The notes: generated by a model from the letters alone, not told the origin. Positions 50,609 through 64,000 are shown, counted from the stretch's first letter. The stretch is DNA of 64,000 nucleotides from an uncultured delta proteobacterium (GCA_963706575.1 CAVPNL010000013.1:32001-96000), one strand, 5' to 3'. A program made the numbers and translations.

Positions 50609-51796
50609 TTAAACCACGCCCGTCTGCTTTCCCACTTTTGTAAATGCCGTTATTGCCATATCGAGCTCTGCCGTAGTGAGGGCGGCTGAAATCTGAACCC
50701 GGATTCGGGCCTTGCCTTGGGGCACCACCGGATAGGAAAATGCAATCACATAAACACCTTCGGCCAGCATCGCTTCCGCCATCCGCACGGCCACTTTGGC
50801 ATCACCCAGCATAATCGGCACAATCGGATGATCTCCCGGATTGATCTTAAAACCAGCTTTGGTCATGCCATCTCGGAAATGGGCTGTGTTGCGCGCCAAT
50901 CGGTCCCGCAATTCGGTTGAGGCACTGAGGGTTTCAAGCACTTTGAAAACAGCGGCGGCAATGCCCGGAGCCAGTGTATTGGAAAAGAGGTAGGGACGCG
51001 AGCGCTGCCGCAGGATATCGACAATTTCCCGTCGCCCGCTGGTAAACCCGCCGGATGCGCCGCCCAGCGCTTTGCCGAAAGTGGAGGTAACAATATCCAC
51101 CCGGTCCATGACGCCGTGGTATTCGGGGGTGCCACGGCCGGTTTTTCCGATAAAGCCGGTCGAGTGCGAATCGTCTACCATCACCAGCGCCTCGTAGCGG
51201 TCTGCCAGGTCGCAGATGCCTTTCAAATCCGCCATGATGCCATCCATCGAAAAGGATCCATCGGTGGCAATCAATCGGAACCGGGCATCCTGCGCCTCTT
51301 TCAGCTTGGCCGCCAGATCCTTCATATCATTGTTTTTGTAACGAAACCGCCTGGCCTTGCAAAGGCGAATACCGTCGATGATGCTGGCATGATTGAGCTC
51401 ATCAGAGATGACGGCATCCTCAGAGCCCAAAAGGGTTTCAAAAAGGCCGGCATTGGCATCAAAGCAGGAAGAATAAAGAATCGTGTCCTCGGTACCGAGA
51501 AACTCGGACACCTTTTGTTCAAGCTGTTTGTGCAGTTGCTGGGTGCCGCAAATAAAGCGCACCGAAGAAAGACCATAACCCCATTGCTCCAGGCCCGCTT
51601 TGGACGCCTCCACCAGTTCCTGGGTGCCGGCCAGGCCCAGATAATTATTGGCGCAAAGATTGATCACCTGGCGGCCATCGGCCAGCTGAACCCTGGCCCC
51701 CTGACGTCCGGCAATGACACGCTCGTCTTTAAAAAGGCCACTGTCGCGAATCTGCTCTATCTCTTTGATCAGATGATCTTTTATCTTACCGTACAT
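50609..51796 (-). CDS. kbl: 2-amino-3-ketobutyrate CoA ligase (glycine C-acetyltransferase)
   Basis: [53 protein letters not shown]. Confidence 0.97.
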
Positions 51797-51869
51797 GTTT
51801 TCTCCTCTTCAACGCTCTAGCAAAACAAAAAGTTTATCATTTCAGATTACACTTAAGGGCTAATTGAGC

Positions 51870-52027
51870 GAGTGCCTAAAATGCCTAAATTGAACTAAAG
51901 TGACTAAAGTTGAAAAATTCTGTCCATTTAATATTATTGCTCACGCAAAGCCGCTAAGCCGCAAAGAAAGATAATTTAAATTTTAAAAAATCTTGGAATC
52001 TTTGCGTCTTTGCGCCTTTGCGTGAGG
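51870..52027. repeat. Intergenic periodic repeats and inverted repeat between tdh and kbl
   Basis: GTGCCTAAAATGCCTAAATTGAACTAAAGTGACTAAAGT; CTCACGCAAAGCCGCTAAGCCGCAAAG ... CTTTGCGTCTTTGCGCCTTTGCGTGAG. Confidence 0.75.
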
Positions 52028-52050
52028 CTTAAATCTCTCGCTCGTTTTTG

Positions 52051-53094
52051 TCAATCTTCAGTCCAATTAAGAATGACCTTGCCCGATTTACCGGATCGCA
52101 TGATCTTAAAGGCTTTTTCATAGTCGGTATAATTAAACCGGTGGGTAATGACCGGGCTGATATCCAGACCGGTCTGGATCATGGCGGTCATTTTATACCA
52201 GGTTTCATACATTTCACGGCCGTAGATCCCTTTAAGGGTGAGACCGTTAAAAATGACCAGATCCCAGTCAATGACCGTATCCGCAGGCAAGATCCCCAGC
52301 ATGGCGATTTTGGCCCCATGACACATGTTGGTCAGCATCGAGCGCAGCGCATCCGGATTGCCCGACATCTCCAGACCCACGTCAAAGCCCTCCTTCATGC
52401 CCAGCTTTTTCTGGGCATCTTCAATCTTTTGCGTGCGTATGTCCAGCGTCAGGGTGGCGCCCATTTTTTTTGCGAGCTTTAAGCGATAGGGGATCACATC
52501 GGTGACCACCACATAACGGGCACCGGCATGTTTGGCAATCGCGGTGGCCATACAGCCAATGGGCCCGGCACCGGTGATAAGCACATCTTCGCCGAGCACA
52601 TCAAACGAAACCGCAGTGTGGGTGGCGTTGCCCAGCGGGTCAAAACAGGTGATCATATCCAGCGGGATATGGGGATCGCAATACCAGATGTTGGTGACCG
52701 GGAGGCTTAAATACTCGGCAAAAGCGCCAGGTCGGTTAACCCCCACACCGCTGGTGCGCATGCACAGGTGGCGTCGGCCGGCCAGACAGTTTCGGCAGCG
52801 GCCGCAAACCACGTGGCCTTCACCGGAAACCAGGTCGCCAGGCTTAAAATCATGGACATTGTCACCGATCTCGGCCACCCGCCCCACAAACTCATGGCCC
52901 ACCGGCATCGGCACCGGAATGGTTTTTCGAGCCCACTCGTTCCAGTTATAAATGTGCACATCCGTTCCGCAGATCGCGGTTTTGCGGATCTTTACAAGCA
53001 CATCGTTGATACCGATCTCCGGAACGGGCACTTCTTCCAACCAGAGCCCCGGTTCAGGCTTGGCCTTCACCAATGCTTTCATTTTAGCGGTCAT
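52051..53094 (-). CDS. tdh: L-threonine 3-dehydrogenase
   Basis: [51 protein letters not shown]. Confidence 0.97.
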
Positions 53095-53406: not shown

Positions 53407-54045
53407 ATGATGTCATTTAAGGCGCTTTGCCAGGCTGTAGAATCCGGCAACACTGCTGATGCTGAAGGTCTGACACGCAAATTTCTGGACGAGGGCAAAG
53501 ATCCTCTGGAAATGATTGCAGCACTCACAGAGACAATGAATAAGCTTGGCGAGCTGTTCGAGCGTCTGGAAATATTTCTTCCCCAATTGATACTGGCAGG
53601 GGAGGCCTTAACAGCTTCAGTCGAAATTCTGCGCCCCAAGATAATGGCGGCAGGGGAACAGGGAGCCCCCAAGGGCAGGGTTGTCATCGGTGTTGTCAAG
53701 GGTGATCTACATGCAATCGGAAAGAATATCGTGAAGTTGATGCTCGATACCAACGGATTCGAGGTAAAGGACCTGGGATACGATGTGGATTCACTCACCT
53801 TTATCAAAGAGGCCGAGGCCATGGGAGCAGATATCATCGGAGCGTCATCTCTGATGACCACCACCATGCCGGGGCAGAAGGAAATCATAGAACTCTTGAA
53901 AGAGAAGGGACTCAGAGACCGATACAAAGTGGTAATCGGTGGGGCGCCCACAGGTCAGGAGTGGGCGGACCAAATCGGCGCAGACTTGTGGTGCGAGGAT
54001 GCCACCTCAGCGCCCAAGAAGATGGCCGAGCTTTTGGGCAAGTAA
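53407..54045 (+). CDS. Methyltransferase cognate corrinoid protein (MtmC/MttC-like)
   Basis: B12 cap (GELFE..EIFLPQL) and B12-binding GDLHAIGKNIV (DxHxxG), SSLMTTT, IGGAP; RBS AAGGAGGT. Confidence 0.95.
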   Translation: MMSFKALCQAVESGNTADAEGLTRKFLDEGKDPLEMIAALTETMNKLGELFERLEIFLPQLILAGEALTASVEILRPKIMAAGEQGAPKGRVVIGVVKGDLHAIGKNIVKLMLDTNGFEVKDLGYDVDSLTFIKEAEAMGADIIGASSLMTTTMPGQKEIIELLKEKGLRDRYKVVIGGAPTGQEWADQIGADLWCEDATSAPKKMAELLGK

Positions 54046-54048
54046 GGC

Positions 54049-54120
54049 GGGTTCAAAGGTTCAGGGTTCAGCGTTCAAGGTTGTTTTAACCCAGAACCCT
54101 GAACCTCTGAACCCTGAACT
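54049..54120. repeat. Inverted heptamer arrays (GGTTCAG / CTGAACC)
   Basis: GGTTCAAAGGTTCAGGGTTCAGCGTTCAAGGTT ... AGAACCCTGAACCTCTGAACCCTGAAC. Confidence 0.8.
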
Positions 54121-54198
54121 CTTAGGCTTTTCATATTGGAATTTAGTATATCGACGAATACAGAAGACACGATTGAAAAAAAATAAGGAGAATCCACC

Positions 54199-55581
54199 AT
54201 GTCTACTCCCTATCGTCTCTGGGAAATTTTGCAGCGGTCCTATACAGGCCCACATTGCGAAGAAGATGATTTTTTGCCAAAAATATTTACACCCAAGCTG
54301 CAGGAAGTCATAAAAAAATATGAGATAACCTATGATCCAAAAACCCCGGTGCCGGCTGACGACGATCTGGCGGACAGGGTGTGGCAGGCCGGCTGGGAAT
54401 TGTTCCGCGAGGTGGGCCTCTACAACACGAACACCCACCGGATCATTAAAGTCTCCGACGATGAAATCAAAGAAGCGCTCTATATGACGACAGGGGCATA
54501 CTGGGTCGGCGCCGGAAAGGACGCTGTGTTATGGAAATACCGCCAGGTGGAGGATCGCGAGCCGCCATTTTGCATCTTCAGCCCCGACATAACCTGTGAT
54601 GAAAATCTGCACCACTCCATGTGCCTCGCTTATCTTAAAGAGCCGCTTCTGGATGGCTTTTGTGCCCCAATCCTGGAGGACTCTATCGGCCAGCTTATCT
54701 CATCGGGCTCACCGACTGAAATAAACGGGTGCACCCAGCACATATACAACCTTCGTCTGGCGGCAAAGCAAGTCGGCCGGCCCGGTGTTTTTTTGGTTGC
54801 TGTCGGGACCGCCGAGCACGACACCGGTCAGATTGCCGTGTCTGACAACGAGTGGGGGGTGCGAACCACCGATTCCCGGCTCGTCGGAACGCTAACCGAG
54901 TTTAAAACGGCGGACACCCTGCTCAACCGGGTAACCCACTACGCGCAATACGGGTGTTATACCGGCAACCTTACAGGCCCTATCTACGGGGGCTGGTGTA
55001 TGGGTTCGGAGGGGGTTGCCGTTACGCTGGTGGCCTACAGTCTCAGCGGTCTGTGCATCCATGGTGCGGTCTATAACCAGCATTTTCCCTTTCACCTGCA
55101 TTGGGGCTCCAATACAACCAGAGAGCTTCTTTGGCCGATCAGTGTGGCCGGTCAGGCCATGGCGCGCAACAGCAAGCTCCTGCATACCTCCAACGGATTC
55201 TCAAACGCAGGCCCCATGACGGAAATGGTCTTATACGAAACCGCATGTCATGCCCTTGTCAGCACGGTATCGGGATGGCACCTGTGGGAAATGGCCTCGG
55301 CTCGCAATAAATATAGAAATCGGGCAACCCCGATGGAGGCCCGCATCGGTATGGAAGTCGGCCATGCCGTTGCAGGTCAGGGAATGACAAGAGAGCAGGC
55401 CAACGAGCTGGCTCTGAGGCTGTTGTCAAAATATGAAGAAAACGCAGCCGATGCCCCTATGGGCAAAGAATACCCGGAATGCTACGACGTGGCCACGGCA
55501 CTGCCGACCACCGAGCACTTTGATATGTACCGCCGCATCAAGGATGAGCTGGCTGAAATGGGTATCGAATTCCCATACTAA
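54199..55581 (+). CDS. mtmB: Monomethylamine:corrinoid methyltransferase (MtmB) family protein without pyrrolysine
   Basis: 460 aa uninterrupted; P.DDDLADRV, GSPTE, GRPG, PIYGG, H.HWGS.TTRE, AGPMTEM, PMEAR, YE..APMGK.Y.ECYDV match the MtmB pattern as I recall it. Confidence 0.88.
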   Translation: MSTPYRLWEILQRSYTGPHCEEDDFLPKIFTPKLQEVIKKYEITYDPKTPVPADDDLADRVWQAGWELFREVGLYNTNTHRIIKVSDDEIKEALYMTTGAYWVGAGKDAVLWKYRQVEDREPPFCIFSPDITCDENLHHSMCLAYLKEPLLDGFCAPILEDSIGQLISSGSPTEINGCTQHIYNLRLAAKQVGRPGVFLVAVGTAEHDTGQIAVSDNEWGVRTTDSRLVGTLTEFKTADTLLNRVTHYAQYGCYTGNLTGPIYGGWCMGSEGVAVTLVAYSLSGLCIHGAVYNQHFPFHLHWGSNTTRELLWPISVAGQAMARNSKLLHTSNGFSNAGPMTEMVLYETACHALVSTVSGWHLWEMASARNKYRNRATPMEARIGMEVGHAVAGQGMTREQANELALRLLSKYEENAADAPMGKEYPECYDVATALPTTEHFDMYRRIKDELAEMGIEFPY

Positions 55582-55641
55582 GGTATGGGCGGTTGATATG
55601 AAAAAGCGAAAATTTCCTTTCCAATAAATCAATTGTCCGAT

Positions 55642-56463
55642 ATGTCTACTGGAATGTCCCAATCATACCAAGAACTCCGGTTAAAACTGAAGCGTTCCCC
55701 GGTGATGGATGTCACCAAATTCCTGATGGTTGTGGCGGTAATCATCTGGGTTATGGCTCGCGGGACGCAGCAACTCGGTTATAACTGGCAATGGTACCAG
55801 ATTCCCAAATATATCTTTCAGTTACAGGACGGCGAATTTTCTTTTGGACCCCTTCTGTTCGGGTTGTCCGTGACGTTTCGGATTACCGCCTGGGGTCTTG
55901 TATTGTCTATGACCATCGGATTGGTGACCGCCCTTTTACGGCTATCCAACTCTTTCTTGGCCAGGATCGTTGCCAGAGGATATCTGGAACTCATCCGAAA
56001 CACACCGCTTCTGGTCCAAATCTTTTTCCTTTACTTTGTCCTGGCCCCCATCTTCGGCTTCAGCCGTTTTTTTGCAGGCGTCCTCGCGCTGAGTCTTTTC
56101 GAAGGTGCCTATGTCTCGGAAATTTTTCGCGCGGGCATCGTGTCCATTCACAAAGGCCAGTGGGAAGCAGCCCACAGCCTGGGGCTGAGCATATTTGACA
56201 CCTACCGCTGCATCATTCTGCCACAGGCGATCCGTCGTATTCTTCCTCCCCTTACCAGCCAGGCTATATCACTGATCAAAGACTCGGCCCTTGTCAGCAC
56301 AATTGCTATTTATGATTTGACCATGGAAGGCAGAGCAGTTATCGCCGAAACATTTCTGACATTTGAGATCTGGTTCACGGTTGCTTTCATGTACCTCATT
56401 ATTACGATAACGCTATCTATTGCTGTCAATACCCTGGAAAATCGATTTCGCATTCAGACCTGA
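55642..56463 (+). CDS. Polar amino acid ABC transporter permease
   Basis: YLELIRNTPLLVQ, SEIFRAGI, GQWEAA.SLG, LIKDSAL; start uncertain. Confidence 0.93.
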   Translation: MSTGMSQSYQELRLKLKRSPVMDVTKFLMVVAVIIWVMARGTQQLGYNWQWYQIPKYIFQLQDGEFSFGPLLFGLSVTFRITAWGLVLSMTIGLVTALLRLSNSFLARIVARGYLELIRNTPLLVQIFFLYFVLAPIFGFSRFFAGVLALSLFEGAYVSEIFRAGIVSIHKGQWEAAHSLGLSIFDTYRCIILPQAIRRILPPLTSQAISLIKDSALVSTIAIYDLTMEGRAVIAETFLTFEIWFTVAFMYLIITITLSIAVNTLENRFRIQT

Positions 56464-56484
56464 GGCGACCAGGAGGAGCTGTCT

Positions 56485-57237
56485 GTGATAGAAAAGAAAC
56501 TGGGTGATTATATTGTGACGGTGGATAAGATCGGCAAAACATTTCCCAACGGTGTTTGTGCCTTGCGTGATTTTTCCACCCGAATCCGCCGCAGTGAGGT
56601 GGTGGTCATCATCGGCCCATCCGGTTCGGGGAAATCCACCTTTCTGCGTTGCCTCAACGGATTGGAAGAGATCGATAACGGTTCCATCGTTATTGACAGG
56701 ATGCCGCTCGACGAAAATAAAAAAAATAGACTGGAGATCCGCAAGGAAGTCGGCATGGTTTTCCAGTCGTTCAATCTGTTCCCCCATAAAACCGTGCTCG
56801 GAAACATAACACTGGCTCCCGGGCTGGTCCGTAAAAAAAGCAAGGATGAGGCCAGAAAAATGGCGATGGACCTCCTGATGAAAGTTAATATTTCGGAAAA
56901 AGCGGACAGTTACCCTTCTCAGCTGAGCGGGGGCCAGCAGCAGCGGGTAGCGATCGCCAGAGCACTGGCAATGCGCCCGAAAGTCATGATGTTCGATGAA
57001 GCCACTTCCGCCCTGGATCCTGAAATGATTGGCGAGGTTTTGGACGTTATGAAAAACCTTGCCAGAGAAGGAATGACCATGATCGTAGTCACCCATGAAA
57101 TGGGCTTTGCCCGTGAGGTCAGCGACCGGGTGATCTTTATGGAAGACGGTTGCATTGTCGAAGAAGGAACGGCAGAGCATTTTTTCTCAAACCCGCAGAA
57201 AGAGCGGACCAAGCTTTTTCTCAGTCAAATTTTATAG
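56485..57237 (+). CDS. Polar amino acid ABC transporter ATP-binding protein (GlnQ-like)
   Basis: [42 protein letters not shown]. Confidence 0.96.
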
Positions 57238-57325
57238 ATGTATTTGTATTTATGCATCCAAATAGCGAATAACCAATAACTATTAACTAACAACAAATAG
57301 CATTGAATTATTAAAGGAGGGAAAG

Positions 57326-58153
57326 ATGAAAAAACAATTCTTCGTTTCAGTCATTGTGCTTGTTGGTGTTCTCGTTTTCAGCCTGGCTGCCAGCACGTCT
57401 GCCGGAGAGATCCAGAGAAAGCTGACGACAGAAAGCGCCATCGAACAAATCGCCAAACGCGGTGTCATCAAGGTGGGTATGGACGTTTTCGTGCCATGGG
57501 CCATGAAAGATAAAAAGGGAGAATTAATCGGCTTTGAGATCGATATGGCCAAAAAACTGGCAGAGGATATGGGCGTCAAAATAGAGTTTATTCCGACGAA
57601 ATGGTCCGGAATTATCCCCGCCCTTATTACCGGCAAGTTTGACGTGCTTATTGGTGGAATGACAATTACGACCCAGCGCAACCTGAAGATCAATTTCACA
57701 AGACCTTATTACTACACCGAGCAGGGGTTAATGGCGCATAAAAAGAAAGCTGCGGGCTTTAAGGTCTCCGACTTCAACAGCCCGGATGTCACCATCGCCG
57801 CCAGATTAGGGTCAACCGCCGCCGTTGCTGCAAAGCAGCAATTTCCAAAAGCAAAACTTCGCCTCTTTGATGACGAACCTGCGGCTGTTCAGGAGCTGCG
57901 CAATGGTAACGTGCACGCCATGGTTTCGGCGCAACCACTGCCGTCAAGCACAGCCCTGGAATACCCCGATACGATCATGGTTTATGACGAAGTTATGATG
58001 CTTGAGGCGATCGGCATTGGCGTTCGCAAGGGCGACAGCGATACCCTCAACCTGGTTAACAACTGGATTGAAATTAACCGAAACAACGGGTGGATTCAGG
58101 GCAAATACGCATACTGGTTCAAATCACAGGACTGGAAGAGTCTGATTGAATAG
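57326..58153 (+). CDS. Polar amino acid ABC transporter substrate-binding protein (family 3)
   Basis: Signal peptide; GFEID.A, W.GIIPAL.TGKFD, GMTIT..R, FTRPY; RBS AAGGAGG. Confidence 0.95.
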   Translation: MKKQFFVSVIVLVGVLVFSLAASTSAGEIQRKLTTESAIEQIAKRGVIKVGMDVFVPWAMKDKKGELIGFEIDMAKKLAEDMGVKIEFIPTKWSGIIPALITGKFDVLIGGMTITTQRNLKINFTRPYYYTEQGLMAHKKKAAGFKVSDFNSPDVTIAARLGSTAAVAAKQQFPKAKLRLFDDEPAAVQELRNGNVHAMVSAQPLPSSTALEYPDTIMVYDEVMMLEAIGIGVRKGDSDTLNLVNNWIEINRNNGWIQGKYAYWFKSQDWKSLIE

Positions 58154-58165
58154 CCTTTCAAAAAT

Positions 58166-58208
58166 CATCGCTGCGTCAGGGCTGGAAACCAGCCCTGACG
58201 CAGCGATG
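58166..58208. terminator. Perfect 20-bp intercistronic hairpin after the binding-protein gene
   Basis: CATCGCTGCGTCAGGGCTGG-aaa-CCAGCCCTGACGCAGCGATG; no U-tract, so possibly an mRNA stabiliser rather than a terminator. Confidence 0.65.
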
Positions 58209-58251
58209 GAAGTTATTCGTTATTTGTCGAAAAGGAACTAAGAGAAATACG

Positions 58252-59136
58252 GTGCTGCAAAAGAAAAGCAAAATTTCAACCCTTGACGTGCTTGTATTGC
58301 TCACCCTTCTCGGGGGGCTCACATATATTATCTATCAGGTCAAGGTCAAGCTCAACTATAACTGGCAATGGGGAATCATCCCCCAGTATCTCTTTCGCTA
58401 CGATGCCGAATCCGGAAAGTGGGTGTCCAACTATCTGATCCATGGGCTCATGACCACCCTGCGGCTGAGCTTCTGGGGCACCCTGCTGGCCACCATCCTC
58501 GGCACGGTGATGGGGCTGCTGCGCGTGAGCAAAAGCCTGTTTCACCGAATGATCGCGCGTTCCTATGTTGAGCTCATGCGCAACCTTCCGCCACTGGTCA
58601 TTATCTTCATTTTCTATTTTTTTATTAGCGACCAGATAATGCCGATTATCGGCATTGACGATTTCCTCAGATCCAGTTCTCCAGGAACACAGCGGCTCTT
58701 TGAGACGCTCTTTTCACCGCCGCAATATGCATCTGCCTTCATTTCCGCTCTTCTCACACTGGCTATTTTCGAGGGCGCCTATATCACAGAGATCGTGCGA
58801 GCAGGAATCGAGTCTGTGGAGAAAGGACAGTGGGAGGCATCCCATGCCCTGGGCCTGTCAAAATATCATAATATGCGCCATATTATTCTACCCCAGGCGA
58901 TGCAACGCCTCCTGCCGGCCCTTGCCGGCCAATTTATCTCTCTGATCAAGGATTCGGCCATTGTTTCCGTGATATCGATCCAGGAGCTATCCTACCAGGG
59001 AACGCAATTAATGGCTTCCACCTATCTGACGATCGAAATCTGGGTTACGATTACCGCCCTTTATCTGGTTATGACCCTGACCTTTTCCCTCGGCGTCGGA
59101 AAACTCGAAGCATATATGGCTCGAAGTCAGGCCTGA
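58252..59136 (+). CDS. Polar amino acid ABC transporter permease
   Basis: YVELMRNLPPLV, TEIVRAGI, GQWEAS.ALG, LIKDSAI. Confidence 0.93.
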   Translation: MLQKKSKISTLDVLVLLTLLGGLTYIIYQVKVKLNYNWQWGIIPQYLFRYDAESGKWVSNYLIHGLMTTLRLSFWGTLLATILGTVMGLLRVSKSLFHRMIARSYVELMRNLPPLVIIFIFYFFISDQIMPIIGIDDFLRSSSPGTQRLFETLFSPPQYASAFISALLTLAIFEGAYITEIVRAGIESVEKGQWEASHALGLSKYHNMRHIILPQAMQRLLPALAGQFISLIKDSAIVSVISIQELSYQGTQLMASTYLTIEIWVTITALYLVMTLTFSLGVGKLEAYMARSQA

Positions 59137-59470: not shown

Positions 59471-61523
59471 ATGAAATCCATTCGAATCATTTTATTTTTA
59501 TTGTTTGCCGGTCTTTTGACGGTTGTCCCATTTACCAACGCCGAGGATAAAACACCGGTGACCCAAACAAAGAATAAACAATCCATTGCCATATCCGAGG
59601 CAATGGACGATGTAATGATCCAGGAGGTCACCAAGGTCAAGGAAGAGTTTAGCCAGAAAGTACGCTCGCTTTTCGACCGCCATCCGCTCGGCTGGGATCT
59701 GAATACCATCGCTTACTTATCCCGTCTGGCGCTTTCTTTGCCGGGGAAACTTCCCGTATTTACCCGTATGGTGATCGAGCAAAGCCGGGTGCTGGGCGTG
59801 ATCGGCTCCATCCTTGTTTTGGTGTTTTTTTCCGCTGTCCTGTACAGCCTGCTTGGTCAGCGGCGGGTGATGCGCCGGGTAGAACGGCGCGTCGAACCGC
59901 TGTCCAGGTTCATTCCGGAAGCCACTTATCCGTTCGTTATGTCCGGTATCAAAGTGGTCGTTTCCGCCTTGATCCCACTGTCGCTGCTCGGTGCATTTGT
60001 CCTGATCAACGTCATGATCGACTATTCGGCGGTCTGGTTTCAACTTGTCGGGCGGCTGCTCGGATTCTGGGCGGTCGGTGCCCTTTTGCTGCGGTTGCTG
60101 AAGGAATCCCTGACCCGCGACCTGTTTAAGGTAACCGCACAGCACGGTCGGACCATTTATCGTTGGACACGGCTGGCATTGCTGTACGCGATTTTCGGCG
60201 TGGCCATATACTGGACGGCGGAAGTTTTCAAGATACGAGATGATGTTCTGGCGCTTTTGCGTTTCGCGATATCGGTTTCCGTCTCAGTCGTTCTGTTGAT
60301 CCTGCATCTAAACAAGAAAGCCTTTATATCGTTTTTACCGTAAGCTGTCGATTCGAGGCTATACGCAGTTTCGAAGCTTTCTGGAACGGTATTACTTTCC
60401 GCTGCTGTTTGTGTCGTTTCTGGCTGCTCTGTTATGGTGCGTTGGATATCGCGACTTAGGCCGGCTGGTGTTGATCAAGATCTGGTTCACCGGTGCTGCG
60501 TTTGTTCTAATTATGCTGCTATATAACACCTTGCAGCGCTTTCTGAACAATTGGTTTCAGCGGTTGGACCACACTGATGAAAACGCCCGGATGTTCGTCA
60601 ACACATTGCGGTCAATTCTCAAGTATGCCACCATTGCGGCGACCCTGATCATTGGTCTTAACATGCTCGGGTTATTGAATCCCCTGCAGCGTATCATGTC
60701 CTTTCCGATTTTTCAGCTCGGCGATAAAACTGTCACATTCTGGCTCATTATCATGGCGATACTAAGCCTCCTGGCTATTTTTGCGGTCTCCCGCCTGGCA
60801 CAATCTTACTTTGACTACAAGGTGTATCCCTCTTTCGGCATCGATCCGGGTCTGGGGTATGCACTCAACACGGTATTCAAATTCGTCGCTCTCGGGATCG
60901 GATTTTTAATTGCACTGAATATCCTGGGGATCAACCTTCGCTTTTTCTTGGTCTTTGCCGGCGCCATCGGTATCGGTGTCGGTCTCGGGCTTCAGAATAT
61001 GGCTGCCAATGTGATCAGCGGCTTTAGCATCATTTTCGGCGGGAAAATCCGCAAGGGTGACTGGATCGAGGTCGGGTCCATGCTCGGAGAAGTGACGGAT
61101 ATTTACCTGCGAGCCACCAAAGTGCGAACCCGGGATAATATCGAGTACCTGGTTCCCAATTCCAATATTATTTCCAACACCATGGTGAATTATTCATTGT
61201 CGTCACCGCTGATCCGTATTGAGCTGCCCGTTGGCGTTTCATACAAGGCTGATCCGCGCCAAGTTGAAAATATTCTACTGGCTGCTGCGGAAAACGAGCC
61301 GCTTGTCGAAAAAATCCATATTCCGGCGGTACGCTTTGTCGAATATGCCGACAATTCCATCAATTTCGAATTACTCATCTGGATTAACGTACGCAAAACG
61401 CCGCGACGCAAGGTACGAAGCGACCTTTATTTTGTCATATTCGAAGAGCTTGCCAAAGCCGGAATTGAGATCCCGTTTCCCCAAAGAGACATACATATCC
61501 GCTCAAAAGTGGATCCAGTCTGA
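59471..61523 (+). CDS. MscS/MscK-like mechanosensitive channel, split by a 1-nt insertion at 60341
   Basis: Deleting T60341 gives FLP-KLSIRGYTQFRSFLERYYFPLLFVS into ORF 60411; GVGLGLQN, IRKGDWIE, VPNS, IEIPFPQRD. Confidence 0.88.
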
Positions 61524-61568: not shown

Positions 61569-62828
61569 CTATCTAACCTCTGAACCTTTGAACGGTGACA
61601 AGGGCCCTTTTTGCCTGTTGCTGAGGAAATCAACCGCGCAACAGGCTTGAATTGCTGCGCCCAGAGGCATGACCTCCTCATTAAAATCAAAAAAGGGGCT
61701 GTGAAGCGGGTGGATGAAACCCAGAGCGGGATTTGCGGTTCCCAGGAGCCAGTGAGCACCGGGAACCTTCTGATGGAAGTAGGCGACATCTTCCCCGGTC
61801 ATGCTGGGGGATTGCTTGTCGATGACGTTGTCGACCGGCAGAATTTTGCATGCAGAATCCTTGAATTCCGCAGCCAGCTCCGGATGGTTGAATACCGACG
61901 GATATTCCATCTTAATTTCCAGGCGGTGGGTCCCACCGCTCGTCCGGGCCACACCCCGCGCCACCTGGTCCAATTCAGCGGCCAGCGCTTCGCGCTTCTC
62001 CGGATCGAGGGTCCGGATGGAGCCTGTCAGCGTGACCTCTTCAGGTATAATGTTACTGGCCGTTCCCCCGTGAACCGTACAAAATGAAAGGATCGCGGGA
62101 TCCAGGGGATTTACTTTCCGGGTAACAATGGTTTGACCGGCCATGATCACCATTGCGGCCATGATGACCGGATCCACGCCTTCATGGGGGCTGGCGACAT
62201 GGCAGCCTTTGCCGATCATTCTTAGAACAAATTCCGCCGATGAGATCGTGCAGAAGCCGGGTTTTATCCCGATGGTGCCTTCCGGCAAATCGGGGTTCAG
62301 GTGCAGTGAAAAGATTCCATCGACATCGGGATTTCTAAGGGCACCATCCTTTATCATGGGTATGGCACCGCCGGGCGCCTGATCCTCGCTGGGCTGAAAG
62401 ACGAACTTGACGCTGCCCTTGAGTCGATCCGAAAACTTGCAGAGCAAACTGGCGGTCCCCAGCAGGATGGCCGTGTGCCCGTCGTGACCGCAGCAATGCG
62501 CAACACCGGATTTGGTCGAAGCATAGGGAACGGCATTTTTTTCTTCCATCGGAAGTGCATCCATGTCGGCACGCAGGGCAACACATTTTCCCGCCTCCTT
62601 GGCTGAGAGGGTGGCGACAACGCCATGACCGCCGATACCGCTGTGCACATCGAGTCCGAGATGCTTTAAATAGTCGGCAACAATGCGGGATGTTCGAACT
62701 TCTTGCGTCCCGAGGTCGGGGTGCTTATGCAGGTCTCTGCGGATTTCACGCATCTGGTTTAGGAGATTTCCGGCTTCCTGTAAAAAACGATGTGGCTTCA
62801 CGATATGCAAATCTTTTTTCTGCTTCAC
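61569..62828 (-). CDS. M20D family amidohydrolase
   Basis: RRDLHKHPDLG, LRADMDALP, HCCGHDGH, FQPSED, GEDV, LHSP.FDF; GTG start with RBS AAGGGAG. Confidence 0.93.
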   Translation of the reverse strand: MKQKKDLHIVKPHRFLQEAGNLLNQMREIRRDLHKHPDLGTQEVRTSRIVADYLKHLGLDVHSGIGGHGVVATLSAKEAGKCVALRADMDALPMEEKNAVPYASTKSGVAHCCGHDGHTAILLGTASLLCKFSDRLKGSVKFVFQPSEDQAPGGAIPMIKDGALRNPDVDGIFSLHLNPDLPEGTIGIKPGFCTISSAEFVLRMIGKGCHVASPHEGVDPVIMAAMVIMAGQTIVTRKVNPLDPAILSFCTVHGGTASNIIPEEVTLTGSIRTLDPEKREALAAELDQVARGVARTSGGTHRLEIKMEYPSVFNHPELAAEFKDSACKILPVDNVIDKQSPSMTGEDVAYFHQKVPGAHWLLGTANPALGFIHPLHSPFFDFNEEVMPLGAAIQACCAVDFLSNRQKGPLSPFKGSEVR

Positions 62829-62844
62829 CTTGGCTCCCTTTGTG

Positions 62845-64000
62845 TTAAGGGATCTTCTCAATCCGGACGGGAATGGCTTTTAACAGGGGAAAACCGCTGA
62901 TCGGGTCATTGATATTATCGTAGGTTACCAGATTAACATTGCTATCCTGCCAGCCGTGTGGGATTTCAACGAAACCCGGAAGAATTTGTGCGTCGTTGGC
63001 TATTTTTACCCGGACTTGCACCGCGCCGATTTCCGATACGACCCTGACCTGTTCCGTGTTTTCAATTCCCAGGCTGGCGGCATCTTCAGGATTCATCTCC
63101 ATTTCTGCGACGGGAAAGGCTTTACGAAACTTTGGAATATTATGATATCTCGAGTGGTAGTAGAGCGGGTTGCGTGCGCCGGTGTTTAGTACAAAAGGAA
63201 AATCGTTGCTGGGATTACGAAGGTAACGGGGCGCGATATACTCCGGGATTTCGGGGAGATTGAGTTCTTTCAAATATTGTGATGTAAATTCAATCTTTCC
63301 GGACCTCGTCGGGAAGGGCCGGGCTTCATATTTCTTATAACACATGGGTTTGTAAACAATACCTTCGGAATGTTTTTGCAGCGCTTCCAGAGAAATGCCG
63401 GTCGGCTCCAGAATCCAGCGGTTCACCTCTTCTTCGTTTTTCCACGGAAAATATTCTTTCCCAAAACCGAGGCGGTGGGCCAGATCATGCCACAGTGAGT
63501 ACTCATCATGCACACCCTCAATCTCCGCCACTTTGGCGGTCAGCACAACCCTTTGGTATTTTGGATGAAAATGGAGCTCAGATCTTTCAAGAAAGCTGGC
63601 CGCCGGCAGAACATAATGCGCCAGCTGGGCCGTTTCAGTGAGGAACAGATCATTTACCACCAGAAGTTCCAGTGACGAAAGCGCCTGAACAACTTTTCTT
63701 GTATTGGGATTGTTAATCGCCGGATTGGCTGCGGTCATGATGATTCCTTTGAGGGGGTATTCACCGTTTCCGAGCATGTAATCCATGGCTGTCATGGTGT
63801 GGCACTCCCAGCGGTAATCATAAAGGACCGGAAACTTATCCGCCCCGATCGGCTTCTGATCGCGGAGTGAAATCTCGTCACATAAGGAGAGTTTGCGCTC
63901 TCCCAGTGCTTCAGGCCAGGTGAATCCCCCTTTGATATCAAGCGCGCCGCAGAGGGCTACCAGGCAAGCAATCGTGCGGACGTCGTTGACACCATTTTCC
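62845..64000 (-). CDS. Molybdopterin oxidoreductase (DMSO reductase family), C-terminal part; 5' end lies outside the window
   Basis: Frame open from 64000 (ENGVNDVRTIACLVALCGALDIKGG) through DLFLTETAQLAHYVLPAA, TRSGKIEF, HSRY, EMNPEDA, PHGW. Confidence 0.92.
   Translation of the reverse strand, partial: ENGVNDVRTIACLVALCGALDIKGGFTWPEALGERKLSLCDEISLRDQKPIGADKFPVLYDYRWECHTMTAMDYMLGNGEYPLKGIIMTAANPAINNPNTRKVVQALSSLELLVVNDLFLTETAQLAHYVLPAASFLERSELHFHPKYQRVVLTAKVAEIEGVHDEYSLWHDLAHRLGFGKEYFPWKNEEEVNRWILEPTGISLEALQKHSEGIVYKPMCYKKYEARPFPTRSGKIEFTSQYLKELNLPEIPEYIAPRYLRNPSNDFPFVLNTGARNPLYYHSRYHNIPKFRKAFPVAEMEMNPEDAASLGIENTEQVRVVSEIGAVQVRVKIANDAQILPGFVEIPHGWQDSNVNLVTYDNINDPISGFPLLKAIPVRIEKIP

Follow-up and report, generated by a model that had tools for sequence, protein, structure and literature searches.

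What does an MtmB-family methyltransferase act on in a bacterium when it lacks the pyrrolysine (Pyl) of its methanogen relatives? The question is raised by a 64,000-nucleotide stretch of DNA (the window) from an uncultured delta proteobacterium of an anaerobic, sediment type (GCA_963706575.1, CAVPNL010000013.1:32001-96000; genome label G000), in which genes for a corrinoid protein, an MtmB homologue and a family-3 ABC importer (permease, ATPase, solute-binding protein (SBP), permease) follow one another on the plus strand. A first-pass annotation had placed these six open reading frames, all of which we recover at the same positions, and had proposed a methylated amino acid, for example a methylated lysine, arginine, histidine or glutamate, as the substrate. 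A methylated amino acid does appear likely, and the evidence presented here singles out histidine from the four. We propose that the MtmB homologue is probably a methylhistidine:corrinoid methyltransferase that takes part in a pathway for the anaerobic breakdown of (thio)histidine. We read the substrate as a methylated histidine because of a hut cluster 9.5 kb away, the co-occurrence of a Mo/W enzyme, and a HutC-type operator in relatives. These three lie beyond the coordinates of the earlier annotation and are stronger evidence than the importer on which it had relied.

The MtmB homologue lacks pyrrolysine

In a profile search the protein matched PF05369 over residues 7-456 (305.6 bits against a cut-off of 25, E = 7.5e-91), and it aligned with Methanosarcina barkeri MtmB (1L2Q) at E = 7e-59, which upholds its membership of the family. 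The frame is open, with no in-frame TAG, and a GTT codon (Val200) stands opposite pyrrolysine X202 of 1L2Q; the corrinoid gene is adjacent, as had been noted. An AF2 model built from a 72-row alignment (pLDDT 95.9) superimposes on 1L2Q and 1NTH with a TM-score of 0.95 and an rmsd of 1.5. The equivalents of E205, E229 and E259, which we take to be the active-site acids of M. barkeri MtmB, are Gly, Leu and Leu. Both marks of a Pyl-dependent MtmB, the in-frame UAG (pyrrolysine) and the three acids, are thus missing.

A scan restricted to one genome per species found 85 relatives, of which 80 loci were retained. Their MtmBs are 69-97% identical to the window protein; beyond them, representatives clustered at 50% include one full-length protein at 54% identity, the others reaching at most 38%. 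In a FastTree phylogeny this group, which we call clade 1, is separated by a branch of support 100 from its sister side, where the co-located paralogues and the two other MtmBs of G000 are placed. Titles of the 80 loci name Desulfobacterales or other delta proteobacteria, Spirochaetota, and single members of the Anaerolineae, Gemmatimonadota and Pseudomonadota, with no methanogen among them. Valine occupies the Pyl site in all 77 full-length clade rows drawn from these loci (partial rows were excluded). The clade-specific invariant residues at the barrel strand ends include D130, R227, T259, Q294, H295, F298, W363 and E364, while F296, F334, R369 and N370 are common to clade 1 and the paralogues. 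In the modelled pocket, the combination of an aromatic/acidic patch with Arg/Lys suggests a zwitterionic amino acid as ligand. The spirochaete MtmBs (77-83% identity) have an identical invariant pocket.

The loss of pyrrolysine from clade 1 is not for want of the machinery, since G000 has pylS, pylB and pylC and a TAG-bearing MttB. The three pyl genes score above cut-off at C15:114-122k (L084), beside a dimethylamine methyltransferase homologue and a corrinoid gene; the MttB with an in-frame TAG is at C15:58.7-60.1k and is one of 12 MttB matches in the genome. The bacterium therefore appears, from its gene content, to be pyrrolysine-competent. The earlier statement that MT2, RamA and pyl genes are outside the window agrees with genome-wide searches, which put them on other contigs (the window itself was Pfam-scanned in part).

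Histidine utilization genes and a Mo/W enzyme accompany the methyltransferase

The only hutH and the only hutU of G000 lie 9.5-13.5 kb from mtmB, just past the window end. Genes for an M20 amidohydrolase, the Mo enzyme and HutH are arranged leftward, hutU-ftcD-hutI-fchA rightward, and hutH, hutU, ftcD, hutI and fchA all score above their profile cut-offs. The SH and ASG motifs of hutH are intact, which we take to mark a canonical HutH; the enzyme would therefore need a free alpha-amine. The hut-Mo enzyme-M20 order, together with the importer, is kept in the close relatives L002, L192 and L207. It is possible that the M20 protein is an N-acyl or dipeptide hydrolase.

To place these genes in a wider context we used 50 clade genomes, picked for long contigs from 79 distinct ones. 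The Mo enzyme is encoded in 43 of the 50 and lies within 20 kb of mtmB in 26 of 34 same-contig cases; hutH is found in 33, and in 12 of the 16 genomes where it shares a contig with mtmB the distance is no more than 20 kb. Mo enzyme and hutH are at most 20 kb apart in 17 of 21. We also drew on an independent sample of the class, with 151 genomes (G000 among them) and seven candidates per genome scored for the Mo orthologue; it contained clade-1 MtmB in seven genomes, the Mo orthologue in eight (the same seven plus the draft G170) and hutH in 65, six of the seven among them. As the Mo enzyme is present in 7/7 clade genomes and 8/151 overall, against 65/151 for hutH, it tracks the methyltransferase and not hut in general, and forms the link between the two. 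A reverse search with the Mo enzyme gave 79 metagenome loci, of which the 33 of at least 9 kb were examined without dereplication: nine of them had clade-1 MtmB, 14 a linked methyltransferase of any kind and 19 hut genes.

Gene neighbourhoods were also counted at the 80 loci, with flanks of up to 8 kb that were often cut by contig ends. A corrinoid protein is encoded near mtmB in 72, MttB in 34, an MT2-type protein in 29 and a family-3 SBP in 22; the Mo enzyme and a hutC-like gene are each found in 18, hutH or hutU in 11, and IOR with a HisC-like aminotransferase or an acyl-CoA synthetase (ACS) in 10. The hut and IOR contexts do not overlap at any locus. Among 11 genomes titled Spirochaetota, ten have the Mo enzyme and one has hutH; they carry the aminotransferase-IOR-ACS set, plausibly a second route for histidine.

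Several of these observations weigh against a histidine-specific role. The co-occurrence of hutH alone is not significant (Fisher p 0.08), and the genomes are related and so not independent. In four of the 16 same-contig genomes hutH is far from mtmB, and 17 of the 50 (drafts) gave no hutH match. IOR/aminotransferase sets are, moreover, typical of aromatic amino acids generally.

A HutC-type operator joins the genes in relatives

The HutC operator has the consensus TGTA-N2-TACA (PMC12977541, in part). At 17 of 19 loci a perfect palindrome that fits it, TGTATATACA, stands upstream of the hutC-like gene, where 0.016 would be expected per 330 nt; the hutC-like gene itself scores below the TIGR02018 cut-off. 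In the closed genome G058, three of the four sites genome-wide are at corrinoid-mtmB, at hutC/Mo enzyme and at a hutU operon 1.3 Mb away. Five of the six sites in G025 are at hutH/hutC, the corrinoid gene and two distant operons, those of hutU and of the Mo enzyme, and all four sites in G048 are at hutC, the corrinoid gene and a distant Mo enzyme.

The regulon has its own gaps, which count against the proposal. The hut genes tested in G048 and G049 have no box upstream. In G034 the box is absent at the corrinoid gene and one of seven sites is at the locus; in G039 only two of seven are. G000 has no HutC orthologue (best match 26%) and no operator near the locus, so the regulon evidence comes from relatives only. 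Regulator and box appear to have been lost in the window's genome.

The Mo/W enzyme is a candidate thiohistidine desulfurase

The best PDB match of the Mo enzyme is acetylene hydratase, and the protein has a Cys metal ligand and an acetylene-hydratase-like Mo-bisPGD module. It consists of the Mo domains only, with no fused C-terminal cysteine desulfurase. Among proteins of 1051-3000 aa, the top 8 of 23 matches are fusions of Mo domain and cysteine desulfurase of the MES type; in their motifs they agree with the MES sequences given in the supplement of PMC9516567 (in part). Two motifs are present in 24/24 and 22/24 homologues of the Mo enzyme and in 8/8 MES-type rows, and in 0/26 other Mo enzymes. 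A search for homologues of near-equal length returned generic names only. An FeS subunit gene precedes the Mo enzyme in 23 of 33 loci. Since MES exchanges sulfur reversibly on trimethylhistidine (PMC9516567, in part), the Mo enzyme is a reasonable desulfurase candidate. We favour, on balance, a stand-alone MES homologue that would work with an FeS partner as a desulfurase in a catabolic regulon.

Three points speak against sulfur as the target. The two shared motifs were picked after the alignment had been seen; identity to the MES-type proteins is 30-32%, and acetylene hydratase scores similarly; and reduced trees place the Mo enzyme in a trichotomy or in long-branch joins, neither uniting it with MES as a sister nor setting it apart. 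Acetylene-hydratase-like ring dehydroxylases remove ring oxygen. The Mo enzyme might likewise take oxygen from a ring (e.g. of 2-oxo-histidine) or oxidize a side product, methylhistidine still being demethylated but sulfur playing no part. The low identity, the trees, the missing cysteine-desulfurase fusion and the FeS subunit upstream in 23 of the 33 loci would all suit such an enzyme; the motifs shared with MES and found in none of the 26 other Mo enzymes do not, and thiohistidines are the common natural ring-substituted histidines. We regard it as possible, if unlikely, and retain thiohistidine desulfurization as the working assignment.

Proposed pathway and choice of substrate

In the pathway that we propose, the ABC system would import a methylated histidine compound. 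The Mo/W enzyme would take a substituent off its ring; this is most likely a thiohistidine's sulfur, released by reversal of the MES reaction. The Pyl-free MtmB, whose family is clear and whose substrate and chemistry are predicted, would then pass the N-methyl group on to the corrinoid protein's Co(I); pyrrolysine could be dispensable if the substrate brings a cationic leaving group such as N-methylimidazolium. The methyl group may pass to tetrahydrofolate (THF) through a methyl-THF:corrinoid methyltransferase, encoded above cut-off on C15, or to a thiol through one of the MtaA-type MT2 proteins encoded elsewhere in G000. Three RACo/RamA-type activator genes, found on contigs C16 and C6 by genome-wide search, would provide for reactivation of the cobalt. 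All parts of a three-component system (MT1, DxHxxG corrinoid protein, MT2 and RACo) are thus encoded in G000. Free histidine would finally enter the HutH-HutU-HutI-FtcD route, or in spirochaetes a route through the HisC-like aminotransferase, IOR and acyl-CoA synthetase.

Which methyl group is removed is a separate matter, on which the number of linked demethylases bears. The orthologue of the linked MttB occurs in 24 of the 50 clade genomes and in three of the 151 genomes of the class sample, all of them clade carriers; it is absent from G000 and from G058, which has a single MtmB and two distant MttBs. A second MtmB, of the type found on contig C12 of G000, adjoins clade 1 in six loci. Both are accessory, and the core set is corrinoid protein, MtmB, Mo enzyme and histidine catabolism. 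Because the MttB orthologue is accessory and closed G058 has one MtmB, we favour a singly methylated substrate; ring-methylated histidine or ovothiol A fits best, as one demethylation then yields histidine. Within the methylhistidine model we therefore prefer ring N(pi)-methylhistidine or ovothiol A, at somewhat less than even odds. An alpha-N-methyl intermediate of ergothioneine or hercynine breakdown is a serious but lesser contender, and N(tau)-methylhistidine or another compound is doubtful.

The same counts bear on a substrate with several methyl groups: MttB at 34 of the 80 loci and the second MtmB at six would suit a multiply methylated betaine at least equally well, which tells against the single-methyl choice. 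The enzyme might act as MtqB does on the trimethylammonium group of hercynine or ergothioneine, possibly repeatedly, or take off the final alpha-N methyl group once MttB and the second MtmB have acted, a sub-case of our model with the methyl group at another site. MtqB, a Pyl-free MtmB, demethylates quaternary amines (PMC13044021, in part), MES acts on trimethylhistidine, and F296, F298, F334, W363 and E364 are invariant candidates for an aromatic/acidic pocket. At L004 and L005, mtmB1, the Mo enzyme, a second corrinoid-mtmB pair and mttB form one run that would supply three demethylases; such operons fit ergothioneine or ovothiol C. The MttB ortholog is, however, missing from G000, and G058 lacks both it and the second MtmB. 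The operon's M20 amidohydrolase would also suit alpha-N-acylated or dipeptide forms, which are impossible for a betaine. We think this version rather unlikely, and keep ring-methylated histidine as the preferred one.

The importer contributes little to this choice. The family-3 ABC genes are present as described, but as a pointer to the substrate they are weak evidence: a family-3 SBP is encoded at 22 of the 80 loci only, its pocket is variable, and its closest structure, 9E2B, is titled L-tryptophan-bound, which does not favour histidine. The SBP falls below every named NCBIfam cut-off and has neither an equivalog-level match to the HisJ/ArgT type nor the alpha-amino-binding Asp. We considered this pocket as a clue to the substrate and rejected it as not diagnostic, the Asp being missing throughout the subgroup and in Trp-bound 9E2B itself. 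A single-sequence AF2 model of the SBP (pLDDT 43) served for PDB titles only. No paper describing 9E2B was found in the literature searched, which left subscription journals largely uncovered. The importer does not decide which methyl group or which substrate is involved.

The title of 9E2B and the IOR, HisC-like aminotransferase and ACS genes in 10 of the 80 loci would be compatible with another methylated aromatic amino acid (N-methyltryptophan, tryptophan betaine or O-methyltyrosine), the hut linkage then reflecting an amino-acid catabolic island. The HutC-type operators and hut linkage in Desulfobacterota speak against this, as does the unchanged invariant pocket of the 77-83% identical spirochaete MtmBs, ten of whose 11 genomes have the Mo enzyme; we judge it improbable. 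A choline or tetramethylammonium methyltransferase like MtqB, or a methylamine enzyme, unrelated to histidine, has in its favour that MtqB, the sole characterized Pyl-free MtmB demethylase, uses these substrates (PMC13044021, in part). It is quite improbable here: the invariant pocket candidates R227, R369 and K371 hint at a carboxylate, none of the 80 titles names a methanogen, the Pyl site and the equivalents of E205/E229/E259 are gone, and G000 has separate Pyl-type MttB/MtbB genes. Operation in reverse, with the pair methylating as the MtmB-like EmtA does to make methylhistidine or an ovothiol- or ergothioneine-like product and the Mo enzyme acting as a sulfur transferase like the biosynthetic MES, is very improbable, since the importer, the catabolic hut genes and the HutC-type repressor box imply catabolism and the fused desulfurase on which synthesis by MES depends is missing from the Mo enzyme.

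Relation to known systems

The clade-1 protein resembles MtmB of M. barkeri (1L2Q, 1NTH) in its fold and its adjacent corrinoid gene, at about 30% identity over the full length. It differs in having Val for the amber-encoded Pyl and Gly/Leu/Leu for the acids, in being bacterial, and in its linkage to hut and the Mo enzyme. The earlier annotation knew of no assigned substrate for Pyl-free MtmB homologues, which two systems contradict. MtqB of Methanococcoides methylutens Q3c demethylates tetramethylammonium and choline; it is likewise encoded directly downstream of a corrinoid gene (that of MtqC) and methylates cobalamin, but it belongs to a methanogen, uses coenzyme M as acceptor and is described near Pyl-containing MtmBs, on a branch marked by a conserved Met/Cys/aromatic site, our comparison being with its description and not its sequence (PMC13044021, in part). 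EmtA of Denitratisoma DHT3 is also Pyl-free, about 30% identical to MtmB and paired with a cobalamin protein, EmtB, but it methylates the steroid ring of estradiol and is accompanied by emtCD with a flavodoxin-like activator (bioRxiv 10.1101/714501, in part). No emtCD-like neighbours were found among the clusters annotated here; the genes around the present pair are instead those of the ABC importer, M20 protein, Mo enzyme and hut cluster. The non-Pyl MttB systems (MtgB, MtcB, MtyB, MtpB, MthB) share the three-component logic of MT1, corrinoid protein, MT2 and RamA; they belong to a separate protein family (12-14% identity in a fold search) and use quaternary amines. The present system is conserved and uncharacterized; it works like MtqBC or MtmBC yet cannot be filed as MtqB.

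The Mo enzyme shares with MES the Mo/W-bisPGD module, the Cys ligand, a 4Fe-4S motif and the two motifs, and differs from it in its low identity, the missing cysteine desulfurase and its catabolic context (PMC9516567, in part). TMA-lyases take part in ergothioneine catabolism (bioRxiv 10.64898/2026.04.22.720169, in part). Known routes of this kind, like ours, lead from methylated or thiolated histidines to the urocanate pathway; in them the amine is eliminated with the methyl group or sulfur still attached, whereas in the proposed route the methyl group, and probably the sulfur, would come off first and the canonical Hut enzymes follow. Beliaeva and co-workers reportedly described in 2022 a catabolism of N(tau)-methylhistidine that enters the urocanate pathway by way of Hut homologues.

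In the literature searched, with subscription journals largely outside it, we found no corrinoid methylhistidine demethylase, no demethylation or desulfurization of ergothioneine or hercynine, and no ovothiol catabolism. Almost all Pyl-free MtmB clades are without a function in current knowledge, and the present proposal gives a widespread one (80 loci, in genomes titled Desulfobacterota, Spirochaetota and others) a narrow, cheaply testable list of substrates. It nominates a possible thiohistidine desulfurase, MES in reverse, and bears on the idea that a substrate with a cationic leaving group of its own makes pyrrolysine unnecessary. If correct, it would account for the anaerobic use of histidines that carry methyl or thiol groups and stem from animal, algal and fungal biomass, and would link these compounds to C1 metabolism and, in sediments, to the release of sulfide. 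A tentative extension, which we consider somewhat unlikely, is the full anaerobic recycling of ovothiol or ergothioneine to histidine by reductive desulfurization through a stand-alone MES-like Mo/W enzyme and B12-dependent MtmB ring-N demethylation, with paralogous MtmB/MttB proteins and a second Mo-enzyme subtype serving other positions; it would be the first ovothiol catabolic route within the literature searched.

Related clusters in G000 and its relatives

G000 has two more pairs of corrinoid protein and Pyl-free MtmB (C12:16.6-18.6k, L081; C4:159-162k, L082), at 37-39% identity and with the Pyl position occupied by His or Tyr; an MtaA-type MT2 comes next after the C4 pair. At C6:695-704k (L085) genes for an MtaA-like protein, a corrinoid protein, RACo, a UroD-like MT2, a small thioredoxin-like protein and a CobW-like GTPase are clustered. 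In many relatives the last three are found fused into the mtmB operon, and they may form a methyl-accepting module; the part consulted of the mlp-cluster paper (PMC10418091) mentions neither MtmB nor CobW. In 18 loci the gene immediately following mtmB encodes a 250-aa protein (L078:9457-10212 and homologues) with no Pfam or NCBIfam match.

A second Hut-like operon, fchA-ftcD-hutI'-hutH'-hutU'-mttB-ABC, occurs at G043:C17:431-450k (L088-L089) and also in G040, G011 and G025. HutH' has the MIO motif intact but Asp where the SH motif has His, and HutU' scores best, below cut-off, against S-methyl-thiourocanate hydratase. Lying beside a second Mo-enzyme subtype and MttB, the operon is a candidate lyase route for another modified histidine.

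Features of the window

Coordinates of the annotated features are collected in Table 1.

Table 1. Features of the locus, in window coordinates
Feature	Position	Strand	Basis
Corrinoid (B12-binding) protein, 212 aa	53407..54045	+	PF02310 + PF02607; DxHxxG at residue 100
Pyl-free MtmB-family methyltransferase (clade 1), 460 aa	54199..55581	+	PF05369; proposed methylhistidine:corrinoid methyltransferase
GTT codon, Val200, at pyrrolysine-202 position	54796..54798	+	Alignment to 1L2Q
Polar amino acid ABC permease 1	55633..56463	+	PF00528; TIGR01726 above cut-off
ABC ATPase, GlnQ-like	56485..57237	+	Profile matches
Family-3 solute-binding protein (SBP_bac_3), 9E2B-like subgroup	57326..58153	+	PF00497; 9E2B E 3.7e-96
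Polar amino acid ABC permease 2	58252..59136	+	PF00528
M20 amidohydrolase, last gene of hutH-Mo enzyme-M20 run	61569..62861	-	PF01546; TIGR01891
Mo/W-bisPGD enzyme, 3' part (whole: 687 aa, G000:C13:94848-96908)	62845..64000	-	Acetylene-hydratase/MES-like; proposed thiohistidine desulfurase

The tdh-kbl genes (50609-53094, minus strand), which serve the conversion of threonine to glycine and are divergent to the corrinoid gene, were considered as pathway partners and rejected as coincidental, homologues being present at 0 of the 80 loci. A scan of the locus for promoters and terminators gave results at chance level or uninformative. RNA runs contained 0.03-0.20 of the words; they consist of relatives' contigs that also span neighbouring genes, and are uninformative on expression. 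Between importer and M20 gene, at 59471-61523 on the plus strand, are two reading frames in different frames, of 290 aa (no Pfam match) and 370 aa (MscS-like), which may be one split mechanosensitive-channel gene. Because they have no homologue among the fetched loci, they are probably a lineage-specific insertion. Intergenic inverted repeats lie at 54049-54119 (30-nt imperfect arms) and 58166-58208 (a 20-nt perfect hairpin). Pieces resembling the first turn up again near 49.6k, 59.1k and 61.6k, and many sediment contigs have them too, as for a REP-like element.

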